A DNA stretch of 32,000 nucleotides from Sinorhizobium meliloti (GTDB lineage Bacteria; Pseudomonadota; Alphaproteobacteria; Rhizobiales; Rhizobiaceae). The translations under genes and the position numbers were made by a program. The stretch is from NCBI RefSeq assembly GCF_017876815.1, contig NZ_JAGIOS010000001.1:2940001-2972000 (forward strand), read 5' to 3'. Under the pieces are notes generated by a model. The model was not told the origin of the DNA and did not search any database. It saw only the letters and a program-made list of their open reading frames with translations. Below are positions 2,347 through 22,769 of this stretch, one piece after another; position 1 is the first letter of the stretch, and each line of letters starts with the position of its first letter.

Positions 2347-3657
2347 CTATTCTTCCCGAAATGCGCGGCTGATCTGGTCCGACAGGGGCTTGATCAGATA
2401 GGAAAGCGCCGTTCTTTGGCCCGTTTGTATGAAGGCTTCAGCCGGCATGCCCGGGAGCGGCTCAAGGGAGCCCAACCGGGCCAATTCCGCTCCGGGTACG
2501 GCAACGCGCACGACGTAATAGGAGAGGCCGCTTCGGGGATCTTCCGTAAGATCGGCGGCGATCCGGGATACGGAGCCGCCGAGCTCGGGCGTGGTTCGCT
2601 GATTGAAAGCCGATAGCCGCAGCACCACGTCCTGGCCGAGCTGGATCTGGTCGATGTCCTGTGGCCGTATGCGGGCTTCGATCGCCAGCCTGTCGCTGTC
2701 GGGGACGATGGACATGACGACGTCGGCCGGCGATATCACGCCTCCAACAGTATGGACGTTGAGCTGATGCACAATGCCGCCCTGCGGGGCGAGCATATCG
2801 ATGCGTCTCAGCTGATCCTCGGCGGCGATCTTGCGTTCGGTGAATTCGCCGAGCTGCGCCTGCACCTCCCGCAGCTCGCGGCCGACCTCTGTCTTGAGAT
2901 CCTCGTCGATCTGAAGGATCTGCAATCTTGTCTCGGCAATCCTGCCAGCCGCCTGGGCCTGTTGAGCGATTTTTTCGCCTCGAAGGCCCTCAAAGGTTGC
3001 CGCCCTCGTTTCCAGTTCGTTCAATCGCTGCACCGACACGATACCTCTCTCATGCAGGCTCCGAAGAGACGCGATTTCGGCATCGAGTATCGAAAGGCCC
3101 CGGTCGTAAGCCTGCTGCTGGGCATCGAGGCCGGCGATTTCATGCTGGAGCTGGACGATACGTTCGAGCAGCTGCGATCTGCGCCCCTCCCGCGACCGTC
3201 TGCGGTATTCGAAGAGCTTGCTCTCACCATTGATGGCGGAGGCGACGGCCCTTTCCTTCGCGCGGACTTTGAGTTCCGTGGGAAATTCCAGCTCGCCGCG
3301 GTCGTCCCTTTCCGCCTCCAGACGCGCGAGGCGTGCCATGAGTTCATCCAGGCGCTTCGTCACGATGCGGAGATTCGCCTTGGTCTGTGTCGGATCGAGA
3401 CGCATCAGCACCTGGCCCGCTTTTACCCAGTCGCCTTCCTCCACCAGGATCTCACCGATGACGCCGCCGGTCGGGTGCTGGACCTTCTTGACATGGGAGT
3501 CGACGACGAAATTTCCCGACGCAACCACGGCCCCGGCCAATTGCGTGGTCGTTGCCCAGGCGCCGGCAGCTCCTATTAGTGCCAGGCCGACGGCCATGCC
3601 GATCGCGAGGTGCCGGCGGATGGACCGGGTAACGGCCTCAGCTTCAGTGCTTGACAT
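2347..3657 (-). CDS. HlyD-family type I secretion membrane-fusion (periplasmic adaptor) protein, HasE/PrtE-like
   Basis: 436 aa. It has an N-terminal TM (LAIGMAVGLALIGAAGAW), a long coiled-coil centre, and the C-terminal GMPAEAFIQTGQRTALSYLIKPL signature of T1SS adaptors. Its ATG at 3657 overlaps the ABC gene stop by 14 nt. Confidence 0.92.
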   Translation of the reverse strand: MSSTEAEAVTRSIRRHLAIGMAVGLALIGAAGAWATTTQLAGAVVASGNFVVDSHVKKVQHPTGGVIGEILVEEGDWVKAGQVLMRLDPTQTKANLRIVTKRLDELMARLARLEAERDDRGELEFPTELKVRAKERAVASAINGESKLFEYRRRSREGRRSQLLERIVQLQHEIAGLDAQQQAYDRGLSILDAEIASLRSLHERGIVSVQRLNELETRAATFEGLRGEKIAQQAQAAGRIAETRLQILQIDEDLKTEVGRELREVQAQLGEFTERKIAAEDQLRRIDMLAPQGGIVHQLNVHTVGGVISPADVVMSIVPDSDRLAIEARIRPQDIDQIQLGQDVVLRLSAFNQRTTPELGGSVSRIAADLTEDPRSGLSYYVVRVAVPGAELARLGSLEPLPGMPAEAFIQTGQRTALSYLIKPLSDQISRAFREE

Positions 3658-5497
3658 CGGCGTTCTCCGTATCGCCCGCTTCGGCTATCGTTGGTTCGGT
3701 GCCGGTGTTCGCAACCACCTTGAGTGGCGCAAGAGTCCGCCCGGAAACGGAAAAGGAACGGGCTGCCGCAGGGGTTGCGTCGCCGTTCTGGCGAGGCGGC
3801 AGCTTCAGAACCTGGGAGAGGACCTCGTCCCTTGGGCCGAATGCCTTGACCTGGCCGCTGTCGACGACAAGGACGAGGTCTGCCGCCCCGATGGCGCTCC
3901 GCCGATGGGCCACCACGACCGCGATGCCTTCCCGGTTCCTCACCGACAGAATTGCGTCGATCACCGCTTTCTCACCGTCCGCATCGAGATTGGCGTTGGG
4001 TTCGTCCAGAACGACGAGGAAGGGATCATTATAGAGCGCCCGGGCAAGACCGATACGCTGGCGCTGTCCGGCGGACAAAGCGGAGCCGGCCTCGCCGATG
4101 CGCGTCTCATACCCCTGTTCGAACCTCACGATGAGATCGTGAACTCCCGCGGCCTGCGCCGCCTTGACGATGGCCGTCGGGTCGGGACTGTTTTCGAAAC
4201 GCGATATGTTCTCGGCGATGGTCCCGTCGAAGAGCTCGACTCCTTGCGGAAGATAGCCGATGTGCCGGCCGAGTTCCTCACGGTCCCATTGCTCGTAGCT
4301 GGCGCCGTCAAGACGCACCTTGCCGCTGGCAGGGGTCCAGGCGCCGACCAGCGCGCGGGTGATCGTCGATTTTCCGGAGCCGCTTGGCCCGATGATCCCG
4401 ATGGCCCCGCCGGCCGGGACGGAAAAGCTTACGCCGGCCACTGTAGGCTTCCCGCCGGAGCCGGGCGGAATGACGGTGAGGCCCTCGACGGCCAGTATCG
4501 ATTTGGGGGCGGGAAGGGGCATTGGCGGATGTGCGGGCGGGATAAGTTGCAACAGGTTCCGGAGCCGGTCCCAGCTCTGCCGTGCCATCAGGAAAGGCTT
4601 CCAGGAGCCGATAGCGAGATCGACGGGAGCAAGGGCTCTTCCCATCATGATCGAGCTTGCCACCATGACGCCTGCGGATACCTGCTGTTCGATGACGAGC
4701 CATGCGCCGACGCCGAGGATTGCCGATTGCAGGATCATCCGCAGCATCCTCGACACCGAACCGAAGGCACCGGCTACGTCGGCCGCACGGCGGTTCGCCT
4801 CGAGGTACAGATGATTTGCGGAGAGCCAGCGTTGCTGCAGGTGCCTCTCAAGGCCAAGCGCCCTCACGGTTTCCGCATTGCGGCGGGCGGCTTCCATCAA
4901 GGCGTTGCGGTCGGTGCCGTATCGCGTCGCGTCTCTGGTCGGCTGCACTGACAAACGATCGGTCAGCAAGGTCATTGCCACGAGAACGAGTGCCCCGACG
5001 AGCGCCGTCATCCCGATCCAGAAATGGAAGAGGAAGCATATTGCAAGGTAAAGCGGCATCCAGGGCAGGTCGAACAGGGCTGTCGGCCCGGCACCGGCGA
5101 GGAAGCCCCTGACATTGTCCAGGTCGCGAAGCGGCTGCAGCCCGTCGCCGGGCATGCGCGTTTCGAGCGGCAGACGGACGATCGCCGCATGCACGCGCCC
5201 CGAAAGCCGATGGTCGAAGCTTTCTCCGATCCGGAGCAGAGCGCGCGAGCGCACGATCTCCAGCATCGCCTGGAAACCGTACATGAGCGTGGCCAGGACG
5301 GCGAGCCCGACAAGGGTCGGAAGGCTGCGGCTTGCCAGGACCCGATCGTAGACCTGCAGCATGAACAAGGGAGACGTCAGCGCCAGCAGATTTACAATGC
5401 CGCTGATGATTGCTAGCCCGGTAAAGGCTGTCCTGGCTGCCGGAATCACCGCCGCAGCCTTAAGCTGCGGCGGCGTCCGTTTGGAGTTTCCAAACAT
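3644..5497 (-). CDS. Type I secretion system permease/ATPase (PrtD/HasD class, no C39 or CLD domain)
   Basis: 617 aa. SPLFMLQVYDRVL N-terminal T1SS motif, Walker A GPSGSGKST, signature LSAGQRQRIGLARAL, Walker B FLVVLDEPNANLD. Confidence 0.92.
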   Translation of the reverse strand: MFGNSKRTPPQLKAAAVIPAARTAFTGLAIISGIVNLLALTSPLFMLQVYDRVLASRSLPTLVGLAVLATLMYGFQAMLEIVRSRALLRIGESFDHRLSGRVHAAIVRLPLETRMPGDGLQPLRDLDNVRGFLAGAGPTALFDLPWMPLYLAICFLFHFWIGMTALVGALVLVAMTLLTDRLSVQPTRDATRYGTDRNALMEAARRNAETVRALGLERHLQQRWLSANHLYLEANRRAADVAGAFGSVSRMLRMILQSAILGVGAWLVIEQQVSAGVMVASSIMMGRALAPVDLAIGSWKPFLMARQSWDRLRNLLQLIPPAHPPMPLPAPKSILAVEGLTVIPPGSGGKPTVAGVSFSVPAGGAIGIIGPSGSGKSTITRALVGAWTPASGKVRLDGASYEQWDREELGRHIGYLPQGVELFDGTIAENISRFENSPDPTAIVKAAQAAGVHDLIVRFEQGYETRIGEAGSALSAGQRQRIGLARALYNDPFLVVLDEPNANLDADGEKAVIDAILSVRNREGIAVVVAHRRSAIGAADLVLVVDSGQVKAFGPRDEVLSQVLKLPPRQNGDATPAAARSFSVSGRTLAPLKVVANTGTEPTIAEAGDTENADVKH

Positions 5498-5518
5498 GCT
5501 GATTTCGAGTCCGCGGGA

Positions 5519-6331
5519 TCAAGCGACGAATTCGAAATTGCCGGCGACCAGGGCAGTCTTGGTCACACCGTTCAAGGTGATGTCGCCGAGCGCGCCGAGG
5601 TTGATGACCGTGTTGGCGCCGGCCTGGGATGAGGCGGCATAGACCTCGGCGAAGCTGTCGAAGGCCGTGCTCTGCAGCGCGAGGCGCACGATGTCGCCCT
5701 TGGCACCGGCGGTAAAGCCGTTGACCGCGTCGTTGCCGATCGTCGACGACAGCGCACCGTCGATGTCCCGGTCGAAGACGAACCGGTCGCGGCCTGCGCC
5801 GCCGTTCAGCGTGTCGTTGCCGTCGAAGCTGTAGAGCCAATCATTGCCGGAGGTACCGTTCTGGACGGTGCCGACCTCTCCCAGATAGTCGAAAAGGCCG
5901 TCCTGTTGCTTTCCGCTTTTCGAGGTAACCCCGGTGAAGTTCGCCAGCGGGTCCGAGTCGACGTTGCTGTTGTGGGTCAGCGAATAGATAGCGCCGGTAA
6001 AGGTTTTGGACGGGCTCACGCCGCCGAGATCGATGCTCAGGTCGGTGTTCGCCAGATCGAAGCCCGATGAGGACGAGCTGGTGAGGCCCCTGCCGAATTC
6101 GAGGCTGTCGACCGTTCCCGTAAAGCCGGCAGGGATGATATAAGAGAAATTGCCTTCGAGAATGACGCCGCGGCTCCCGGCGATATCAACTTGGCCACCC
6201 GCCCATTCATCGTAGGGTGGAAGCGTCGAGTCGAACTGGCCGTTGCCCTCGTAATTCAGATTGGTGGCCCAGCCCTTAAGATAGTTGAGAAGGTTGGCGC
6301 TTGCTGCTGTCAGATTGATGGTTGCAACCAT
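5519..6331 (-). CDS. Secreted T1SS substrate: HasA-hemophore-like N-terminal domain fused to three RTX nonapeptides and a C-terminal secretion signal
   Basis: ATG at 6331 with AAGGAA RBS. There is no Sec signal peptide. Residues 1-130 align by eye with Serratia HasA (YLKGWAT / YLGQWAS; GNFSYII / GNLTYTL; GTVDSLEFGRGL / GQLDSLSFGDGL). RTX repeats GTSGNDWLY-SFDGNDTLN-GGAGRDRFV lie at 5774-5857. The C-terminus ...AGNFEFVA has an acidic-then-hydrophobic tail. The gene ends 21 nt upstream of the ABC gene. Confidence 0.75.
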   Translation of the reverse strand: MVATINLTAASANLLNYLKGWATNLNYEGNGQFDSTLPPYDEWAGGQVDIAGSRGVILEGNFSYIIPAGFTGTVDSLEFGRGLTSSSSSGFDLANTDLSIDLGGVSPSKTFTGAIYSLTHNSNVDSDPLANFTGVTSKSGKQQDGLFDYLGEVGTVQNGTSGNDWLYSFDGNDTLNGGAGRDRFVFDRDIDGALSSTIGNDAVNGFTAGAKGDIVRLALQSTAFDSFAEVYAASSQAGANTVINLGALGDITLNGVTKTALVAGNFEFVA

Positions 6332-6485
6332 GGTGAGTTTTCCTTGGTTCTGAACGATGGCCGCAGGTTGATCCTGCGACAGTGTGCTGTGAGCAATTGT
6401 TCCATGTCTTGTCTCCCGAAGTGGCTTTTCGTTTCGATTGAACGGGAGCGATAGATGCGCCCCACGTTACGCATGTCGAACGGAA

Positions 6486-6655
6486 CTTCGCCCCTCATCC
6501 GCCTGCCGGCACCTTCTCCCCGCGAGCGGGGCGAAGGGGACTCGCGGCGCCGCTCTACCCTCAGCCCCTCAAGAGCGAGCGGTGAGGCCGAGGCTTGTCC
6601 CTTCTCCCCGTCAGAAAAGGGGAGAAGGTCGCGGCAGCGGGATGAGGGGCATCCG
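6486..6655. repeat. Rhizobial palindromic intergenic repeat (RIME / REP-like mosaic element)
   Basis: Outer inverted repeat gcccctcatcc (6490-6500) / ggatgaggggc (6640-6650). Two inner hairpins: ccttctcccc-N6-ggggcgaagg (6512-6537) and ccttctcccc-N9-ggggagaagg (6600-6628). It translates to the spurious PAPSPRERGEG peptide common in Rhizobiaceae intergenic repeats. Confidence 0.7.
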
Positions 6656-6705
6656 CTTCGCTCGAAGAACCGACAATCGGGCGCGGCCGCTTCACTCGAA
6701 CCACT

Positions 6706-9363
6706 CTAGAACTTGAAGTTCAGCGATACCGTCGCGGTCCGCCCCGGAGCGGGATAGTAAAAGGCACCCAATGCCGGCGCATATTGCTCGTCGGTAACGT
6801 TGTTGATGGCGAGCCGCAGCTTGGCGCTGTCCGAGAAGCTGTAGGAGCCGTAGATATCGAATACCTTGTAGCCGGCGGTGTTGAACAGGCCCGCCAGCTG
6901 GCCCACCGTGGGCTTTGAATCGCTGACATAGGTCGCGCGTCCGCCGAGAACCAGCTTCCGCTCGAACAGGCGGATGCCGGCATCGAGCGTGAACTTGTTT
7001 TCCGGCGGGACGAACAGAACCGATGGCACCGGCGTGTTGCCACTTGCTGCAAGCGGGGTCCCGGACGCGGTCGGCCCGGAGTAACTGTAGGTGTCGGCGT
7101 AATCGGTTTTCAGGTAGGTATAGGAGGCGCCGACATAGGCTGATCCCATGTCGTAGCTCGCCTCGATCTCGACCCCGTTCATCGTGGTATCGCCGTCGAG
7201 ATTGACATGCTGGAAGAGGTTTTTGTCGAAGGTGGCGAAGTAACCATTTCCAAGCGTGATATAGTCCTGAATGGTCCTGTCGAAGTAGACCGTCTTGAGG
7301 CGCAGGCTGTCGCCGGCCGTGAACAGCCCGTCCCGTGCGATGTTGATCCCGAGCTCCCATGTCCGGCCCCGTTCCGGCTTGAGGTACGGGTTGGGGATAT
7401 AGGTGGCGATGGCATCACCGGGATGTCCGCCCGACGTCAGCGCTTCCATCACGGATGGCGGCCGGTAGGTATGCGCATAGGTAACGAAGGGTTGAATTCC
7501 TTCGAAGGGCATGACGGCGATCCGCGCCGACGGAAGAAGCGCGCCTCCGGACTTGTCGATATCGACCCGTTCCAAGACCGCCTCACCGCCGCCGTAAACG
7601 GGGTCCTCGTCGTAATAGGCGCACTCGCCGTCGTCATAAAAATAGCCGCACACTCCAGGGACCACGATGTAGCGCGGCTTCCTCCCTCCGACTTCCGTGA
7701 ACCCCTTCAGGCGGTAGCGGTCGTAGCGAAGGCCGGCACCGACCTCCAGCCAATCGTCATGCTCCAGGGTGGCGTTGAGGAACGCGCTCGTCATCGACCG
7801 GCGGCCGACCGGGTTCAATCCCTTGTAGCCGTAGGCCTCGTCGAAGCCTTGGTCGTCGACGAGAGGCGGCGTGGTCGTCTTGCCGTTGTCGGAATAGGCC
7901 TCGCCGCCGTAATTCAGCGAGAGGTCGCCCAGCGCCGTTTCGAAACGGCTCGTATTGTCGAGGCTGCCGCCGAAGCTCGTCATCGCATAGGTGATCGGAA
8001 GCCTCGGGGTATAATCGCGCAGTTCGTCATTGACCACGCGGTTGTACCAGAGGCGCCCCTTGAGATCGATCAGTTCGCTGTCGGGATCCCATTCGAAGGA
8101 TGAGCTGACGGTGTTGTTGAGGTAGTTCTGCGGGTCGTCGCGCAGGTCGCCGAAGACGAGTCCGCCCTGTATCGCCTCCGAGTCGTTGCGAAGCCAGCTG
8201 AGGTCGAAGGTGAAATCGTCCGACGGCGAGCCCTCGACTTTCAGAAGCGTGCCGAAGGTTTCGAGACGCGAGAACAGGAAAGAATCGTCGACTGCGGTCG
8301 TGACCGCAAGATCGAGCAGCGGGGACTTGCCGTTCTGGCCGAAGTCGTAGTCGCCGACCCGCTTGCGGCTGATGCCGCCGAGAACCGAGAAGTCCTCCGA
8401 GAATCTGGCAGCTCCGATCAGCGAGCCGTTGAAGTAGTAGGCATTGGTGCCGGTCTCGGCATTGAGTTCGACGCCCCGATCCCGGTCCGGCTTTATGATG
8501 TCGTCGGCCGTCACCGTGCGGAAATTCACCGCGCCGCCCAGCGAGCCTGCACCGCCGACGCCGGCGACTGCGCCTTTCTCGACCTCCACCGATCGAAGGA
8601 ATGCCGTGTCCACATAAACCCGCTGGCTGGCGCCGTGGCCGGCCCGCTGGAAATCCTGCCGCGCGCCGTCGATCATGGTGGTGACCCGGTTCTGATCCTG
8701 GAGGCCGCGCACATTGATTGCGATGCCGGGGTTCTGCGCTTCCGAGCGGTTACTGGTGACGCCGGCAACCGAGTCGAGCACGTCGTTGGCGTTGCGCGCC
8801 GCCCGGCTCTGCACAGCGTCACGCGAGACGACGCTGACGGAAGCCGGTTCCTCGTAGACCCAGTCGGGTGTCCCCTGAAAGCCGGCGCCCGAATTGGCAT
8901 TTCGCCCGGTTTTGCCGGTCACGACAATCCGCTTCAGAACGGTCGCGCCTTCCTCCGAGCCAGGCGCGCCAGCGTCTCCTGCGGGGCCGATGACCGCAGC
9001 GCGATTGGCCGTGAACTGATAGTGCACACCGGTGCCGTCCAGCAGTTGCGCCAGCGCCTGCTCCGGCGTCATCCTTCCGCGCACCGCACGGGTGGTGACG
9101 TTCGAGGTCCTGCCCGCTGCAGCCTGGCTGATCTGGATGCCTGACTGGCGGTTGAACAGGGCGAGGGCCGAGGCCAGCGGCTGCGACGGGATATCGAAGT
9201 TGCGGACCGCCTGCGACTGCTGCGGTGTGGCCGCGATTTCCTGGGCCGCCAGTTGCGGCGCAGTGCAGACCACGGCGATTGCTGCCGAGGTAGATAGAAG
9301 GAAACCGCGAAGGTACCTTGTGGTGAATTGTGTGTCGCGCTTTGACGCTGCCCCGTATGCCAT
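6706..9363 (-). CDS. TonB-dependent outer-membrane receptor/transducer with N-terminal STN signalling domain (HasR-like; heme-receptor-type FRAP/NPNL-like boxes)
   Basis: Signal peptide ...AVVCTAPQLAAQE. STN domain FDIPSQPLASALALFNRQSGIQIS...ALAQLLDGTGVHYQF (8998-9207). Plug LKRIVVTG. YRPPS...GGH...NPYLKPE lies at 7372-7467. The C-terminus ends in F (SLNFKF). The track ORF starts at GTG 9447; ATG 9363 is more plausible. Confidence 0.9.
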   Translation of the reverse strand: MAYGAASKRDTQFTTRYLRGFLLSTSAAIAVVCTAPQLAAQEIAATPQQSQAVRNFDIPSQPLASALALFNRQSGIQISQAAAGRTSNVTTRAVRGRMTPEQALAQLLDGTGVHYQFTANRAAVIGPAGDAGAPGSEEGATVLKRIVVTGKTGRNANSGAGFQGTPDWVYEEPASVSVVSRDAVQSRAARNANDVLDSVAGVTSNRSEAQNPGIAINVRGLQDQNRVTTMIDGARQDFQRAGHGASQRVYVDTAFLRSVEVEKGAVAGVGGAGSLGGAVNFRTVTADDIIKPDRDRGVELNAETGTNAYYFNGSLIGAARFSEDFSVLGGISRKRVGDYDFGQNGKSPLLDLAVTTAVDDSFLFSRLETFGTLLKVEGSPSDDFTFDLSWLRNDSEAIQGGLVFGDLRDDPQNYLNNTVSSSFEWDPDSELIDLKGRLWYNRVVNDELRDYTPRLPITYAMTSFGGSLDNTSRFETALGDLSLNYGGEAYSDNGKTTTPPLVDDQGFDEAYGYKGLNPVGRRSMTSAFLNATLEHDDWLEVGAGLRYDRYRLKGFTEVGGRKPRYIVVPGVCGYFYDDGECAYYDEDPVYGGGEAVLERVDIDKSGGALLPSARIAVMPFEGIQPFVTYAHTYRPPSVMEALTSGGHPGDAIATYIPNPYLKPERGRTWELGINIARDGLFTAGDSLRLKTVYFDRTIQDYITLGNGYFATFDKNLFQHVNLDGDTTMNGVEIEASYDMGSAYVGASYTYLKTDYADTYSYSGPTASGTPLAASGNTPVPSVLFVPPENKFTLDAGIRLFERKLVLGGRATYVSDSKPTVGQLAGLFNTAGYKVFDIYGSYSFSDSAKLRLAINNVTDEQYAPALGAFYYPAPGRTATVSLNFKF

Positions 9364-9484
9364 GAAATGCCCACTCTTCTGCTTGTCACAGGCACCGCCC
9401 CCGGTGCCGTCGACCAAATAGACAAAGCGGCAGATCGGTTTTTTCACGGGGTCATGGAAAAAACTTGAAAACGGATGTCATATT

Positions 9485-10549
9485 TTAGAAGCGAGAGATG
9501 ACGCGGGCGAAGCTCGAGATTCTCCTCACCTTGCCTCCATAAGGGTCGACCAGAGCGCCGAGCGCTTCGTCCGGCGCCGTGAGGTCGTAGATGCCCGTTA
9601 CCCGCTGGCTGCCGAGCACGGGATCCGGCAGGGATATCCAGGCTGGATGGTAACGTTGAATCCGTTCCACGACGGAGGAGATGGTGGCATTAACGACGTG
9701 AAGGCGTCCCTGTCGCCAGGCGCCGATAGACGCCGCGTCGATGTCGGAGGTCGTCATATCCTGCGCATCGCGGTCGAAGACGAGCGCTTTCCCGGGCGTG
9801 AGACGCCGCTCAGCAGATGCCTCCTTCCCGGACGGAGAGGCCGTGACCAGTCCCCGTTCAAGACTTACCCGGGTGCTTTCACTATCGACCATGACGTCGA
9901 ATGCCGTGCCGAGAACTTCGATTTCGAGACCGCCGGCATCGACGACGAATGGGCGCGCGGGATCGTGCGCCACATCGAAGTACGCTTCGCCCTGGAGCAG
10001 CCTGAGGCTGCGTCGGCTCTGACCGAAGTCCATGGCGATCGCGCTCCCGGGCGCCAAAGTCACGGTGCTGCCGTCCTCGAGCTCGAGGGAGCGGGTCTCC
10101 GCGGTCCCAGTGTGGTAATCCGATTGCAGGACGATCAGCAAGCCGGGAACCCACGCTACGAGAAGACAGATGGCCATCGCACAAGCTGCGATCGCCAAGG
10201 AAGCTCGGCCGCCGCGCCGGCCGGGCTTGAAGTTGTGCGCCGAGGGCTTGTCCCGAGCGGCTGGCAACGCTCCGACGGACAACCAGAGCCGACAGGTCTT
10301 CTCCCATTCCCGCCTGTGGTCTCGGGAAGTGGTGACCCATCGTTCGAAGTGCAAACGCATTTCGGGATCATCGGGCGCTTCGCGAATGCGAATGAGCCAG
10401 TCCGTCGCCTCTTTCGAGAGTTCCGCTGCATTATCGTCAGGCGTCATGGTTCCATCATCCAGCTGCGCGTAGTCCGCGTCTCGCTCACTTTGAAGATAGA
10501 CAGGCGAGAGATCGGCTTTTTTCAGATGTACCGAACGTTCATTCGTCAT
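9485..10549 (-). CDS. FecR-family anti-sigma factor / transmembrane sensor (HasS-like)
   Basis: N-terminal anti-sigma helix region (ATDWLIRIREAPDDPEMRLHFERWV), a single TM (LAIAACAMAICLLVAWVPGLLIV), and a periplasmic FecR domain (GEAYFDVAHDPARPFVV). Its ATG at 10549 overlaps the sigma gene stop by 11 nt. Confidence 0.9.
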   Translation of the reverse strand: MTNERSVHLKKADLSPVYLQSERDADYAQLDDGTMTPDDNAAELSKEATDWLIRIREAPDDPEMRLHFERWVTTSRDHRREWEKTCRLWLSVGALPAARDKPSAHNFKPGRRGGRASLAIAACAMAICLLVAWVPGLLIVLQSDYHTGTAETRSLELEDGSTVTLAPGSAIAMDFGQSRRSLRLLQGEAYFDVAHDPARPFVVDAGGLEIEVLGTAFDVMVDSESTRVSLERGLVTASPSGKEASAERRLTPGKALVFDRDAQDMTTSDIDAASIGAWRQGRLHVVNATISSVVERIQRYHPAWISLPDPVLGSQRVTGIYDLTAPDEALGALVDPYGGKVRRISSFARVISRF

Positions 10550-11096
10550 GGTCGAGGCCTGCCTTCAAGTGCTCCATGGCGTCCCTGACGAGGCGATGGG
10601 CCGTCGGTATCGAGATACTCAGTTCTTCGGCGATGTCCTTCAAAGTCGACCCCTCGAAGCGGTACAGTTCGAATGCCCGTCTCATGCGATCCGGAAGAGC
10701 TCCGAGCGCCTGGGCGACCCGGTCTGCGGCCTCGGACATCAGGAATTGGGCTTCCGGCGTCTCGACGGCCTGTGGCAGCGCCCACCACGGTATATCCGCG
10801 GACTCGACGACGTTGTTCTCAAGCTTTCGCCGCGACCGCTTGTTGAACGAAAGGTTGCGCACGATGCGAAACAGGTAGGTCTTCGGCGGCATGTGCTCGT
10901 CTGCCGTTTCCCGCACGAAGCGAAGATAGGCATCCTGCACGATATCCTCGGCATCGTCCTTCGATCCCAGCAGCGGCGCGGCATAGTCGATCAGGGACCT
11001 GCGGTGCCGCAGGTACATGTGAAAGCGGTCGCCCTTTTTTTCGATAGTCATTGTCCAGCCAGATATTCCGAGATCGCCGCGCTGGCCGTCGGCCAT
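10539..11096 (-). CDS. ECF (FecI-type) RNA polymerase sigma-70 factor (HasI-like)
   Basis: Region 2 DAEDIVQDAYLRFV and region 4 HTH LKDIAEELSISIPTAHRLVRDAM. The track ORF begins at TTG 11252. ATG 11096 (MADGQ...) or ATG 11051 (MTIEKK...) gives a normal ECF length of 170-185 aa. Confidence 0.88.
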   Translation of the reverse strand: MADGQRGDLGISGWTMTIEKKGDRFHMYLRHRRSLIDYAAPLLGSKDDAEDIVQDAYLRFVRETADEHMPPKTYLFRIVRNLSFNKRSRRKLENNVVESADIPWWALPQAVETPEAQFLMSEAADRVAQALGALPDRMRRAFELYRFEGSTLKDIAEELSISIPTAHRLVRDAMEHLKAGLDHDE

Positions 11097-11172
11097 TCTG
11101 GAAAGGACACCGGACGAACGCGCTAAACGAGCGGCTATGCTTATTCTGTCGCCCAGAATGCCGCAACAAAGT

Positions 11173-11187
11173 TGATTGAGATAATCA
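11173..11187. promoter_or_regulatory. TGA-N9-TCA palindrome (RirA iron-responsive-operator-like; also Fur-box-like GATAATCAT) upstream of the ECF sigma gene
   Basis: Read directly: tgattgagataatca in an AT-rich patch, about 80-120 nt upstream of the candidate sigma starts. The motif has low information content, so this is tentative. Confidence 0.3.
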
Positions 11188-14140: not shown

Positions 14141-14830
14141 TCAGGCGTTGCCGGCGAGCGCGATATAATGGACCGAGTGAACGGTATTGGCTTCGAAGCG
14201 CAGCTCCTTGTGAGGGTTGAACTGCTCGAGAACCAGTTCGGAGCTGTTGTGGCGCACGAATTTCTTGACATAGGCCAGCAGGGCGCCGCCTTCCTCCAGC
14301 CGAATCTGGGCGATCACATAGTCTCCCTTCCGGACGCGCCGGCTCGGATCGACGAAGCAGACCTCGCCGTCTTCGTAGCGCGGATACATCGAATCGCCTG
14401 AGACCGAGACCGCATAGGCGCCCGAGATATCCGAGAGTATCGGCGGCGCCATGACTTCGTACAACACATTGCCGTTCATTATGAATTCACCATCAACCCC
14501 GCCGACTGCCTGACCGAAGACCGGGATCTTTTCCCCCTGGCCGATGACCTTGGCGCCGATCCGGGCGTTCGGTACGTCGATTTCGGTCATTGTCGAGCCA
14601 AGCGCCGAGCCTGTAGGGATTCGGCGGTCGGTGCCGGTCAGCAGCCAAAGCGGGTCGACGTTGAACTTGCGTCCGTAAACTTCGGCTTCGCTGAGTTCGA
14701 ACTCATTCTGCCCATTCTCGTGGGCGCGATAGGTCGAGGCGACGATGCCCAAGGCATTCGCCGCGTCGGAGGCGAACCGATAGCCCGCTTTGACGCGCGC
14801 CTCGCGCAATCTTTCAGCTCTTTCGCTCAT
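14141..14830 (-). CDS. Phage CI/LexA-like repressor (XRE HTH plus S24 peptidase domain)
   Basis: ATG 14830 (MSERAERLREARVKAGY...). HTH SDAANALGIVASTYRAHENGQ, and an S24 catalytic region YAVSVSGDSMYPRYEDGEVCFVD...KGDYVIAQI.. (Ser/Lys dyad context). Confidence 0.9.
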   Translation of the reverse strand: MSERAERLREARVKAGYRFASDAANALGIVASTYRAHENGQNEFELSEAEVYGRKFNVDPLWLLTGTDRRIPTGSALGSTMTEIDVPNARIGAKVIGQGEKIPVFGQAVGGVDGEFIMNGNVLYEVMAPPILSDISGAYAVSVSGDSMYPRYEDGEVCFVDPSRRVRKGDYVIAQIRLEEGGALLAYVKKFVRHNSSELVLEQFNPHKELRFEANTVHSVHYIALAGNA

Positions 14831-14845
14831 GACACGGACATAGCA

Positions 14846-14876
14846 ATGTTGAGAACACAAATCATGTTGACAACAC
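14846..14876. promoter_or_regulatory. Two direct operator-like repeats ATGTTGA(G/C)AACAC in the divergent promoter region
   Basis: atgttgagaacac (14846-58) and atgttgacaacac (14864-76), spaced 18 bp apart, between the repressor start (14830) and the divergent gene start (14965). Confidence 0.4.
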
Positions 14877-14964
14877 GACATTATAGATGTCATGGATAAA
14901 GTCAAGTCGCGGCTGCGCTTGCTCCGTGACTGCTGGGAGCGCCGGAAAGGGAGTAGGAGAAGCG

Positions 14965-15483
14965 ATGGTGGAGAATTCTGAACTGGCAAGGCAGACGCGG
15001 CACTATCTGGCCGTGCGGGAGCGGTTGGCCCGCCCGGGCGACGCGGCGGGCCGATCTGCTCGCATCAAAGAACTCGAAGGGCAGTTGGCCGACCTTGCTT
15101 CTGACAATGAAGCGAAAGGGCGGCGGATCGCGAGACTGGAAGCCGATCTTGCCGATGCGGGAGCCCGGCTGCTCGCGCAGGCCCGAATCCTGCTTGGCGG
15201 CCGCGATACCGGTGCGTCGAACGAGGACGGCGGCGACAGAGCGCCGATCGAGGAGATCGTTGCCGCCGTGCTCGAGGATTTTCCCGGTGTGAGCTGGGAC
15301 GACATCATCAGCGTGCGCCGGGAGCGCCGGCTGGTGAAGCCGAGGCATGCCTGCATGCGCGCGGTCTATGAGCGCCGCCGGGATCTCTCGCTGGCGGGGA
15401 TCGGCCGCATCTTCCATCGAGACCACACGACCGTGCTTGCGGTCGTGAACGATGGCGGTGCCGGAAGCGGAACAGCTTCCTGA
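14965..15483 (+). CDS. DnaA-domain-IV-like (Bac_DnaA_C) helix-turn-helix protein with N-terminal coiled coil, phage-associated
   Basis: ATG 14965 after GGAGTAGGAG. The C-terminus ISVRRERRLVKPRHACMRAVYERRRDLSLAGIGRIFHRDHTTVLAVV parallels the DnaA C-terminal DNA-binding domain (..R....PRQ.AMYL......S...IG..FG.RDHTTV). Confidence 0.75.
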   Translation: MVENSELARQTRHYLAVRERLARPGDAAGRSARIKELEGQLADLASDNEAKGRRIARLEADLADAGARLLAQARILLGGRDTGASNEDGGDRAPIEEIVAAVLEDFPGVSWDDIISVRRERRLVKPRHACMRAVYERRRDLSLAGIGRIFHRDHTTVLAVVNDGGAGSGTAS

Positions 15484-21335: not shown

Positions 21336-22769
21336 ATGAGCGTATCCAACCCATCCGAGGGGACCATTGCGTCCGGCCTTTCCGCGATGCTCAGGGAACA
21401 GATGCTGCTGATGGCGGAGCTCCACAGGCGGCAACGAACGAATATCCTCGCCGGTTACCGGCCCTATGCCAAGCAGCGGGAGTTCCATGCGGCGGGCGCG
21501 GCCTTTCGCGAGAGGCTGTTCATGGCCGGCAACCAGCTCGGCAAGACGCTGGCCGGCGCAGCGGAGGCGGCGATGCATCTGACCGGGCGCTATCCCGACT
21601 GGTGGCAGGGCCGGCGGTTCGACCGGCCGATCGTCATGCTGGCGGGCTCGGAATCCTATGAATTGACCCGCGACGGCGTGCAACGGCTGCTGATCGGTCC
21701 GCCGCTGAATGAGGAGGAGTGGGGCACCGGATTTCTCCCGAAGGCGGCGATCAAGGCGACGACACGCCGCGCCGGTGCTTCCGGTGCTCTCGACAGCGTG
21801 ACGGTGCGGCATGTTTCCGGCAGAGCCTCGACCCTTCTCTTCAAGGCCTACGAACAGGGGCGCGCCAAATGGCAGGCCAATACGGTGGATTATGTCTGGT
21901 TCGACGAGGAGCCGCCCGAAGACGTCTATTTCGAGGGGATCACCCGCACCAATGCGACGCGCGGCGCGATCGCGGTCACCTTTACGCCGCTCAGGGGCCT
22001 GAGCGCGGTCGTGGCCAGGTACCTCATGGAAAAATCGCCGGACCGCGCGGTCATCACCATGACGATCGAGGATGCGGAGCACTACACGCCGCAGGAGCGA
22101 CAAAGGGTGATCGACAGCTATCCCGCCCATGAGCGGGAGGCGCGCACCAGGGGCGTGCCGGCGCTCGGATCCGGCAGGATCTTTCCTGTGACGGAGGAGA
22201 GCATTCGTATCGATCCCTTCGAAATCCCGAAGCATTGGGTGCAGATCGGCGGGCTCGACTTCGGCTGGGATCATCCTTTCGCGGCGGTCGGCTGCGCCTG
22301 GGACCGGGACGCGGACGTTTTCCACGTGACGAAGATCTATCGCGAGCGGGAGGCGACGCCGATCATCCATGCGGCGGCACTGAAACCCTGGGGAGCGGCG
22401 ATGCCCTGGGCTTGGCCGCATGACGGATTGCAGCACGACAAGGGCAGCGGCGAGCAACTGGCGGCGCAATACCGCGCACAGGGGCTGGCCCTTCTACCGG
22501 AGCGCGCGACCTTCGACGACGGCACCAACGGCGTGGAAGCGGGGCTCTCCGACATGCTGCAGCGGATGCAGAGCGGGCGCTGGAAGGTGTTTTCCACCTG
22601 CACGGAATGGTTCGAGGAGTTCCGCCTCTATCACCGCAAGGACGGCAGGATCGTCAAGGAACGCGACGATCTGATCTCCGCCTCACGCTACGCCTTGATG
22701 ATGAAGCGCCACGCACGGGCGAACAACGGCTACGCAAACTGGAACTTCACCGCCAGAAAGGTTCTCTGA
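21336..22769 (+). CDS. Phage terminase large subunit
   Basis: 477 aa. Walker A-like FMAGNQLGKT, Walker B VDYVWFDEEP, and a C-terminal RNase-H-like nuclease region (GGLDFGWDHPFA ... DDLISASRYALM). Confidence 0.9.
   Translation: MSVSNPSEGTIASGLSAMLREQMLLMAELHRRQRTNILAGYRPYAKQREFHAAGAAFRERLFMAGNQLGKTLAGAAEAAMHLTGRYPDWWQGRRFDRPIVMLAGSESYELTRDGVQRLLIGPPLNEEEWGTGFLPKAAIKATTRRAGASGALDSVTVRHVSGRASTLLFKAYEQGRAKWQANTVDYVWFDEEPPEDVYFEGITRTNATRGAIAVTFTPLRGLSAVVARYLMEKSPDRAVITMTIEDAEHYTPQERQRVIDSYPAHEREARTRGVPALGSGRIFPVTEESIRIDPFEIPKHWVQIGGLDFGWDHPFAAVGCAWDRDADVFHVTKIYREREATPIIHAAALKPWGAAMPWAWPHDGLQHDKGSGEQLAAQYRAQGLALLPERATFDDGTNGVEAGLSDMLQRMQSGRWKVFSTCTEWFEEFRLYHRKDGRIVKERDDLISASRYALMMKRHARANNGYANWNFTARKVL

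Follow-up and report, generated by a model that had tools for sequence, protein, structure and literature searches.

We analysed a 32,000-nucleotide stretch of the Sinorhizobium meliloti chromosome (contig NZ_JAGIOS010000001.1, positions 2,940,001 to 2,972,000; hereafter the window), in which an open reading frame (ORF) listing shows six co-oriented minus-strand ORFs running from position 2347 to a sigma factor gene. In strain 1021 these genes are named fecI (SMc04203), fecR (SMc04204) and SMc04205-SMc04208. The whole locus is very likely homologous to the hasISRADE hemophore genes, and we consider it probable, with appreciable doubt, that it works as a heme hemophore system with cell-surface signalling. 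By structure prediction and profile alignment, the secreted protein SMc04206 is a HasA-fold domain fused to a repeats-in-toxin (RTX) beta-roll. Has-type heme uptake is textbook biology of gammaproteobacterial pathogens; to our knowledge, rhizobial heme uptake has been described as ShmR/Hmu, with no secreted hemophore. An earlier reading of the letters and their ORFs alone (the sequence-only reading) had taken the locus for a Has-type system, and the kinship of the receptor, the HasA fold and the gene order all support it. Two outcomes by which that reading could have been refuted, an N-terminal fold unrelated to HasA and a receptor grouping with siderophore receptors, were checked computationally and not found.

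The relationship of SMc04206 to HasA only becomes visible at the level of the family. SMc04206 (270 aa) shares 99% identity with a database entry called "hemolysin [Sinorhizobium meliloti]", and a single-sequence PDB search returned RTX proteins only and no HasA. Because such single-sequence searches were uninformative, profiles were needed to detect the kinship. A word-indexed search provided seven relatives. When 1.84 billion cluster representatives were scanned exhaustively with HMMER, only 44 matched at E ≤0.001, about 38 of them true relatives; in nearly all of these the N-terminal domain precedes an RTX or similar module at the C-terminus. A seven-sequence profile matched Yersinia pestis HasA in the PDB (E 4.8e-7). 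With 39 sequences, all 24 PDB matches at E ≤1 were HasA proteins, led by Yersinia HasA (E 6.3e-11); 13 of the 39 family members also touch the Pfam HasA family at E ≤1 (best 7e-5), and no other family recurs. An AlphaFold2 model from the 39-sequence alignment reached a predicted local distance difference test score (pLDDT) of 95.7 and a predicted template-modelling score (pTM) of 0.91; with only seven close homologues the model was unusable (pLDDT 29.5). The top 40 Foldseek matches of this model in the PDB are all HasA structures from Pseudomonas, Yersinia and Serratia (E ~1e-7, probability 1.00), with template-modelling scores of 0.5-0.58 when normalised to the target. The N-terminal domain is thus predicted to adopt the HasA alpha/beta fold.

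The remainder of SMc04206 is an export and folding module. Residues ~154-270 match the C-terminal beta-roll of the Pseudomonas MIS38 lipase 2Z8X with a root-mean-square deviation of 2.2 A over 118 columns (Foldseek; Phmmer finds the same match), and only about three nonapeptide repeats are present, confined to the C-terminal half. The protein has no signal peptide and ends in NFEFVA, like protease and lipase substrates of type I secretion. Export in the canonical HasA manner relies on a C-terminal signal without glycine-rich RTX repeats; here, repeats and beta-roll fill residues 154-270. The chimeric nature that the sequence-only reading had ascribed to the secreted protein is thereby borne out by Foldseek and Pfam, as a HasA-fold domain joined to an RTX module. 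Two outlying metagenomic members (P0051 and P0052; locus L005) carry a histidine at the position equivalent to HasA His83 (Y-x5-H, seven residues before a conserved Asp) and longer RTX arrays, and may link canonical HasA with the RTX-fused family as intermediate forms; the receptor gene of L005 is divergently oriented.

Within the HasA-fold domain, the residue that stands out is a tyrosine. In the 39-sequence profile alignment, Tyr64 (codon 6140-6142) is the equivalent of the axial heme ligand Tyr75 of S. marcescens and Y. pestis HasA, and the family motif G-(N/D)-F-x-Y is matched with "GDLKY" in the Yersinia protein and "GNLTY" in the Serratia protein. Only three residues are invariant among the 39 members, Tyr64, Gly31 and Gly80, and Tyr64 is also invariant in 15 rhizobial sequences. 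The hairpin following the tyrosine is 2-4 residues shorter than in the solved HasAs. Histidine occurs at position 30 in 10 of the 39 relatives, where the loop alignment is ambiguous, and His120 is invariant in the rhizobial subgroup. The idea that His30 and His120 act as complementary stand-ins for HasA His32 and His83 was rejected (2x2 table 2/8/14/15, Fisher p = 0.15; 11 members are histidine-free in this domain). Since histidines are absent or variable across the family, tyrosine is the only universal candidate ligand.

For the receptor SMc04205, the best solved relative in the PDB is Serratia HasR (3CSL/5C58; E 2e-93, colinear over residues 73-908); the next solved receptors, ShuA and another TonB-dependent receptor (~1e-23) and a pyoverdine receptor (1e-17), are far weaker. 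The TonB-hemin model TIGR01785 scores 502 bits against a cut-off of 317, and the siderophore-receptor model TIGR01783 gives 118 bits where 223.5 are required, so that on the question of heme versus siderophore affinity the receptor groups with heme receptors. Its N-terminus carries an STN domain (Pfam) and matches the HasR signalling domain 2M5J (E 6.5e-6). HasR His189 at the plug apex ("SGHGQ") aligns with His243 of the receptor ("AGHGA"; 885-aa numbering), and His603, which lies between the WRPP and NPFL motifs of HasR, is one trivial gap shift away from His647 ("GGHPG"); the rhizobial loop-7 histidine is likewise flanked by a conserved (Y/F/W)RP motif and one that contains NP. Both histidines are kept in 12 of 12 rhizobial receptors aligned and in two more distant ones. 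With the signalling domain and the equivalents of His189 and His603 all present, SMc04205 is, judged by its sequence, a heme receptor of the HasR type.

The STN-type receptors beside distant marine relatives differ at these positions. In L003 (like L004 from the TARA ocean metagenome) and L008 (metagenome-assembled genome GCA_037189345.1) the plug histidine is missing, RGY(I/A)GN replacing (A/S)GHG, and L008 also has no loop-7 histidine. This hints at another ligand or binding mode in the marine branch and suggests that not all family members carry heme.

The regulatory arrangement would suit an iron-responsive signalling system. The RirA box consensus has been defined and verified by mutagenesis, and S. 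meliloti fecIR is among its predicted targets (Rodionov et al., PMC1698941). Each of the 14 related rhizobial loci checked (13 of the 15 related loci described below and one Shinella locus; the window comes in addition) has one TGA-N9-TCA motif, the pattern of this box, at 84-150 nt upstream of its sigma gene, against a background rate of 0.14 per 380 nt. The presence of the box predicts RirA binding and iron-responsive repression of the sigma gene. A second TGA-N9-TCA motif in the gap between the anti-sigma and receptor genes has weaker evidence: of 13 related loci, only 6 have a motif there. It is a possible further RirA site, through which the receptor promoter would be controlled. No Irr ICE-box-like motif was found in the three intergenic regions of the locus. 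Published expression data fit control by the adjacent sigma factor: FecI overexpression raises SMc04206 (Lang et al. 2018, PMC6180224), which also rises under iron limitation and is one of only two putative FecI targets, described there as of "no predicted function" (PMC6180224). The domains of the adjacent extracytoplasmic function (ECF) sigma factor and FecR pair, together with the published induction of SMc04206, though not of SMc04205, point to this pair as the regulator of the system.

Downstream of the hemophore gene lies a dedicated type I exporter and adaptor. The ATP-binding cassette (ABC) exporter scores 735 bits against TIGR01842 (cut-off 510), is of the PrtD/HasD type and has no N-terminal peptidase domain, and the adaptor scores 383 bits against TIGR01843 (cut-off 209). 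In published work SMc04206-04208 are treated as a single operon that has a transcription start of its own (PMC10880074).

The cassette is widely conserved. Scanning one genome per species, we found full-length SMc04206 homologues in 13 species, in Rhizobium, Neorhizobium, Agrobacterium, Ensifer and Aureimonas plus one unclassified Rhizobiales isolate, and cluster look-ups add Bradyrhizobium, Pseudorhodoplanes and Mesorhizobium. Fifteen related loci were compared by tblastn (13 species genomes, one further genome contig and one metagenomic contig). At least five of the six genes, in the order and orientation of the window, are present in the 13 species loci and L002, and all six in 13 of these 14; in L017 (Aureimonas) five genes were matched and the sigma factor fell below the 1e-10 threshold. 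In L023 five genes were matched and the hemophore match was missing. Further loci hold four or five of the six genes. Conservation of the six-gene block across Rhizobiales, for which the sequence-only reading had suggested a survey, is therefore evident, and comparison of these sequences indicates that the shared arrangement is not due to chance. Because the flanking genes are unrelated between genera, the cassette appears to be a self-contained module. Among the more distant relatives, marine and metagenomic, the anti-sigma, receptor and hemophore genes are kept together, plus the sigma gene where assembled, and the hemophore-receptor linkage is retained in nearly every relative examined. Members of the SMc04206 protein cluster occur on hundreds of S. 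meliloti contigs. In strain Ak57 the corresponding region is 96% identical to the window; its record (CP090106.1, L001) is labelled pSymB yet is 3.7 Mb long and looks like a chromosome mislabelled as a plasmid.

The features of the locus are collected in Table 1. Every domain assignment of the six genes was confirmed by Pfam and NCBIfam, and all six reading frames are intact in the window. The gene order and all five spacings given by the sequence-only reading proved exact when the ORFs were re-checked: the sigma and anti-sigma genes overlap by 11 nt, gaps of 121 nt and 374 nt precede the receptor and secreted-protein genes, 21 nt separate the secreted-protein and ABC genes, and the ABC and adaptor genes overlap by 14 nt. 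The start of the sigma gene had been placed at 11187; its ORF is open up to 11252, and the start is most likely the ATG at 11051 (170 aa), since a 170-aa version, 99% identical, is annotated in strain Ak57. For the receptor, translation most plausibly begins with the ATG at 9363, which is followed by a signal peptide; a longer ORF with a GTG start extends to 9447.

Table 1. Features of the Has-like locus in the window (positions count from the first nucleotide of the stretch)
Feature	Position	Strand	Basis or remark
ECF sigma factor fecI/SMc04203, HasI counterpart	10539..11051	-	Pfam Sigma70_r2, Sigma70_r4_2, Sigma70_ECF
FecR-type anti-sigma/signal transducer fecR/SMc04204, HasS counterpart	9485..10549	-	Pfam DUF4880 + FecR
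HasR-like TonB-dependent heme receptor SMc04205, 885 aa	6706..9363	-	STN + Plug + barrel (Pfam)
Secreted protein SMc04206, 270 aa	5519..6331	-	Pfam: single RTX match (HemolysinCabind)
HasA-fold N-terminal domain, SMc04206 residues 1-153	5873..6331	-	Family profile, AlphaFold2/Foldseek
RTX beta-roll and C-terminal type I secretion signal, SMc04206 residues 154-270	5519..5872	-	Includes stop codon
Type I secretion ABC exporter SMc04207, PrtD/HasD type	3644..5497	-	Pfam ABC_membrane + ABC_tran
HlyD/HasE-type periplasmic adaptor SMc04208	2347..3657	-	Pfam HlyD_3
RirA box TGATTATCTCAATCA	11173..11187		Fits TGA-N9-TCA; 122-136 nt upstream of sigma start
Second TGA-N9-TCA motif	9466..9480		Gap between anti-sigma and receptor genes; weaker evidence
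Leader hairpin GTCGCAGG-ATCAA-CCTGCGGC	6360..6380	-	Upstream of hemophore gene
Dispersed rhizobial intergenic repeat (RIME-like)	6475..6651		Inverted arms 6490-6521 and 6619-6650

The long gap between the receptor and hemophore genes contains two elements. The palindromic repeat noted there by the sequence-only reading is present, with arms of 32 nt that are 88% complementary. The interval 6475-6651 recurs in most of 146 plasmid records matching the query, and copies are found on many Sinorhizobium, Rhizobium and Shinella replicons; Rfam at gathering thresholds reported nothing in the window and has no family for the repeat. In related loci the gap is only ~100 nt, and the repeat probably inflates it here without being part of the system. 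Closer to the hemophore gene, related loci (L002, L009-L021) have a leader of two conserved hairpins, ~100 nt upstream of the hemophore start and ending ~20 nt before an AAGGAG ribosome-binding site, in which 8 of 14 consensus pairs show compensatory changes across 12 loci. S. meliloti retains hairpin 1 only. By stabilising the mRNA, directing its processing or acting as an attenuator, the leader may set the ratio of hemophore to receptor expression.

Taken as a hemophore system, the cassette could operate in the following way. (i) Iron control. In iron-replete cells, RirA would occupy the conserved box upstream of the sigma/anti-sigma pair, and iron limitation would derepress it. (ii) Secretion. 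As domain homology suggests, the 270-aa protein would leave the cell through the adjacent ABC exporter, the HlyD adaptor and an unlinked TolC-type channel, and its RTX beta-roll would fold on calcium outside the cell. (iii) Heme capture and transfer. The HasA-fold domain would bind heme with Tyr64 as the axial ligand, in a tyrosine-only manner like that of Y. pestis HasA; the loaded hemophore would then dock on the HasR-like receptor and pass its heme to the His243/His647 pair. (iv) Uptake and signalling. Heme would be imported with the help of TonB and then presumably by HmuTUV; the STN domain and FecR would relay receptor occupancy to the sigma factor, and this in turn would raise transcription of the hemophore-ABC-adaptor operon. 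Of this relay, the increase of SMc04206 by FecI is published (PMC6180224), and homology suggests the remaining steps.

Several observations weigh against a functional heme hemophore in S. meliloti. Although profile homology is significant, SMc04206 falls outside the Pfam HasA family (PF06438) at its curated cut-off, scoring 12.7 bits (E 0.1), far under 26.3. The equivalent of His83 is absent, being Ala68 in S. meliloti (counted from the conserved G-x-V-D-x-L-x-F-G strand, four residues before Gly72) and Gly in relatives, with His only in P0051 and P0052. The equivalent of His32 is also absent, the loop being 2-8 residues shorter with Glu28/Asn30, and 11 of the 39 members have no histidine anywhere in the N-terminal domain. 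Any heme ligation would, by the alignment, involve tyrosine only, and would do so without the usual hydrogen-bond partner. The Y. pestis hemophore HasA has no His32 and uses Tyr75 alone to ligate heme, and Yersinia HasA keeps a His hydrogen-bonded to the Tyr. Judged by sequence and by this analogy, heme binding by SMc04206 is plausible. Amarelle et al. (2008) reportedly found ShmR essential for heme use in strain 1021; if so, the system gives no support for growth on free hemin in laboratory conditions. The receptor gene SMc04205 was induced neither by iron limitation nor by FecI (PMC6180224), for which Lang et al. propose that an extracellular signal is required (PMC6180224), and a strain without any ECF sigma factor showed essentially normal growth and symbiosis/nodulation (PMC6180224). 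In Ak57 the locus has decayed: a deletion that abuts the glycosyltransferase gene has removed the genes for the adaptor and the ABC exporter together with the 3' portion of the hemophore gene, of which ~130 N-terminal codons are left. The locus of this strain also carries an ISRm16 insertion, and its annotated receptor is a fragment of 414 aa. In a published comparison of 48 genomes, fecI, fecR and SMc04205 are listed among genes that S. meliloti has and S. medicae lacks. Given the normal symbiosis of the ECF-sigma deletion strain and the loss of the locus from some strains, the system is probably accessory and not part of the symbiotic core. Our confidence in a heme function is raised by the conserved receptor heme ligands and the invariant tyrosine, and lowered by the missing histidines, the unresponsive receptor gene, the reported dependence of heme use on ShmR and the strain-level decay.

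These reservations feed into other explanations. The machinery could work as described with a cargo other than iron-protoporphyrin IX, such as another metalloporphyrin, a tetrapyrrole or a planar metal complex from soil or plants. The shuttle has lost both canonical histidines, 11 of its 39 relatives have none at all, and the plug histidine missing from the L003 and L008 receptors, with the loop-7 histidine also missing from L008, implies that not every member is capable of HasR-style ligation; moreover, PDB entries among the Foldseek matches show HasA accepting many synthetic planar metal complexes, and in none of the loci does the cassette have a linked gene for heme degradation or transport. 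However, rhizobial receptors keep both HasR heme histidines and pass the TonB-hemin model, the invariant tyrosine sits exactly at the Tyr75 position, and Y. pestis HasA binds heme by tyrosine alone, which leaves a different cargo unlikely in our view. A related and broader idea is that the HasA fold is a general platform for secreted ligand shuttles, of which the gammaproteobacterial His/Tyr hemophores are one branch and the RTX-fused Hyphomicrobiales and marine proteins another. This second branch has one invariant tyrosine and often no histidine, its receptors lack the heme histidines in some marine members, and it would then differ in binding chemistry or cargo. On this view the rhizobial shuttle could supply the missing extracellular step in the acquisition of heme from leghemoglobin or soil hemoproteins. 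We hold this only tentatively, as a speculation with a modest chance of being right.

A second alternative is a loss of function in S. meliloti. Deletions, ISRm16 and a receptor annotated at 414 codons in Ak57, the repeat between the receptor and hemophore genes, the missing leader hairpin, the lack of receptor induction by iron limitation or FecI, the ECF-sigma deletions without growth or symbiosis phenotype and the presence of fecI, fecR and SMc04205 in S. meliloti but not S. medicae would all suit a cryptic or decaying Has remnant with low transcription and little consequence for the cell. We regard such a remnant as distinctly unlikely, given that the window holds six intact frames, the protein cluster lies on hundreds of S. 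meliloti contigs, SMc04206 responds to iron limitation and FecI, and the cassette, its functional residues and the RirA box are conserved in at least 13 other species. Finally, the names "hemolysin", "Ca2+-binding RTX toxin-like protein" and "hypothetical protein" in databases, and the Pfam HemolysinCabind match, would make the 270-aa protein an RTX hemolysin or a calcium-binding toxin or adhesin that leaves by its own type I system and lies beside an iron receptor by coincidence. Yet its repeats, about three, lie in the C-terminal export and folding module, the N-terminal domain has the predicted HasA fold, linkage to a HasR-like receptor recurs in nearly every relative, and a Pfam scan of the locus found no HlyC-type acyltransferase gene or pore-forming region. 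A long repeat array, a pore-forming or enzymatic passenger and, for toxins of the HlyA type, an acyltransferase gene, by which an RTX toxin or hemolysin would be recognised, are all lacking, and we consider this explanation highly improbable. The heme hemophore reading thus remains the one we prefer.

Compared with the Has systems of Serratia marcescens (hasI-hasS-hasR-hasA-hasD-hasE-hasB) and P. aeruginosa, the gene order from sigma factor to adaptor is identical. The S. meliloti locus also shares the HasR-type receptor with a signalling domain and both heme histidines, the predicted HasA fold with the Tyr75 equivalent, a PrtD/HasD-type exporter and an HlyD-type adaptor. An iron-repressor site precedes the sigma gene in both, for RirA here and Fur there, and hemophore expression is sigma-driven in both. 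The main architectural departure is the ~115-aa C-terminal RTX beta-roll, as canonical HasA has none; in addition, the equivalents of His32 and His83 are lacking, the Tyr hairpin and the His32 loop are shorter, the similarity lies under the Pfam cut-off, FecI induced the hemophore gene rather than the receptor gene in one published experiment, and the host is an alphaproteobacterial plant symbiont. The absence of a hasB or TolC-like gene from the window, which the sequence-only reading had listed as a difference, stands as an observation; as a departure it amounts to little, given that Serratia has its hasF at an unlinked site and Pseudomonas has no hasB. No heme oxygenase, TonB/ExbBD, TolC or hmu gene was seen within the window, and none was found in the flanks of the 15 loci beyond generic ABC transporter matches.

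Other known systems place the locus further. The closest solved sequence relatives of the N-terminal domain are the HasAs of Y. pestis and Y. pseudotuberculosis (4JER, 4JET, 4XZD; E 6e-11), which, unlike SMc04206, have His81 hydrogen-bonded to the Tyr, a longer loop at the His32 position and no RTX domain. In the same organism, and with the same presumed substrate, heme uptake by ShmR/HmuPSTUV relies on ShmR, a free-heme receptor without hemophore, signalling domain or dedicated sigma factor that is encoded elsewhere in the genome; HmuTUV is the likely inner-membrane route for heme that the HasR-like receptor brings in. The MIS38 lipase and the serralysin proteases use the same beta-roll module as the C-terminal 115 residues of SMc04206 and the same class of PrtD exporter; their passengers are enzymes, whereas that of SMc04206 is a predicted HasA-fold ligand binder. 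In summary of novelty, the components and logic of the Has system are known, and what is new are the host lineage, the RTX fusion and the histidine-less ligand set. We found no description of a rhizobial or alphaproteobacterial HasA, or of an RTX-fused HasA, in the open-access literature. Nor did we find a paper or database name recognising the locus as a hemophore system, though its genes are named and partly studied; across the family, database names are "hemolysin", "RTX toxin-like" or "hypothetical" only.

S. meliloti and at least 13 other Hyphomicrobiales species would accordingly carry a Has-homologous cassette hidden by annotation. SMc04206, a putative FecI target left uninterpreted by Lang et al., thereby receives a predicted function. 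Among type I substrates, canonical HasA is the classic example of one that lacks RTX repeats; an RTX-fused HasA with neither histidine represents a natural experiment.

On the adaptor side, a Stf0-type sulfotransferase gene (400-1170) and a family-2 glycosyltransferase gene (1231-2322) converge on the adaptor gene; they may be a small gene pair for glycan sulfation, with no apparent connection to the Has-like locus. On the sigma-gene side, phage-type genes at 14141-14989 (an S24 LexA-like repressor) and 21336-22769 (a T4-type terminase large subunit) may be prophage remnants.

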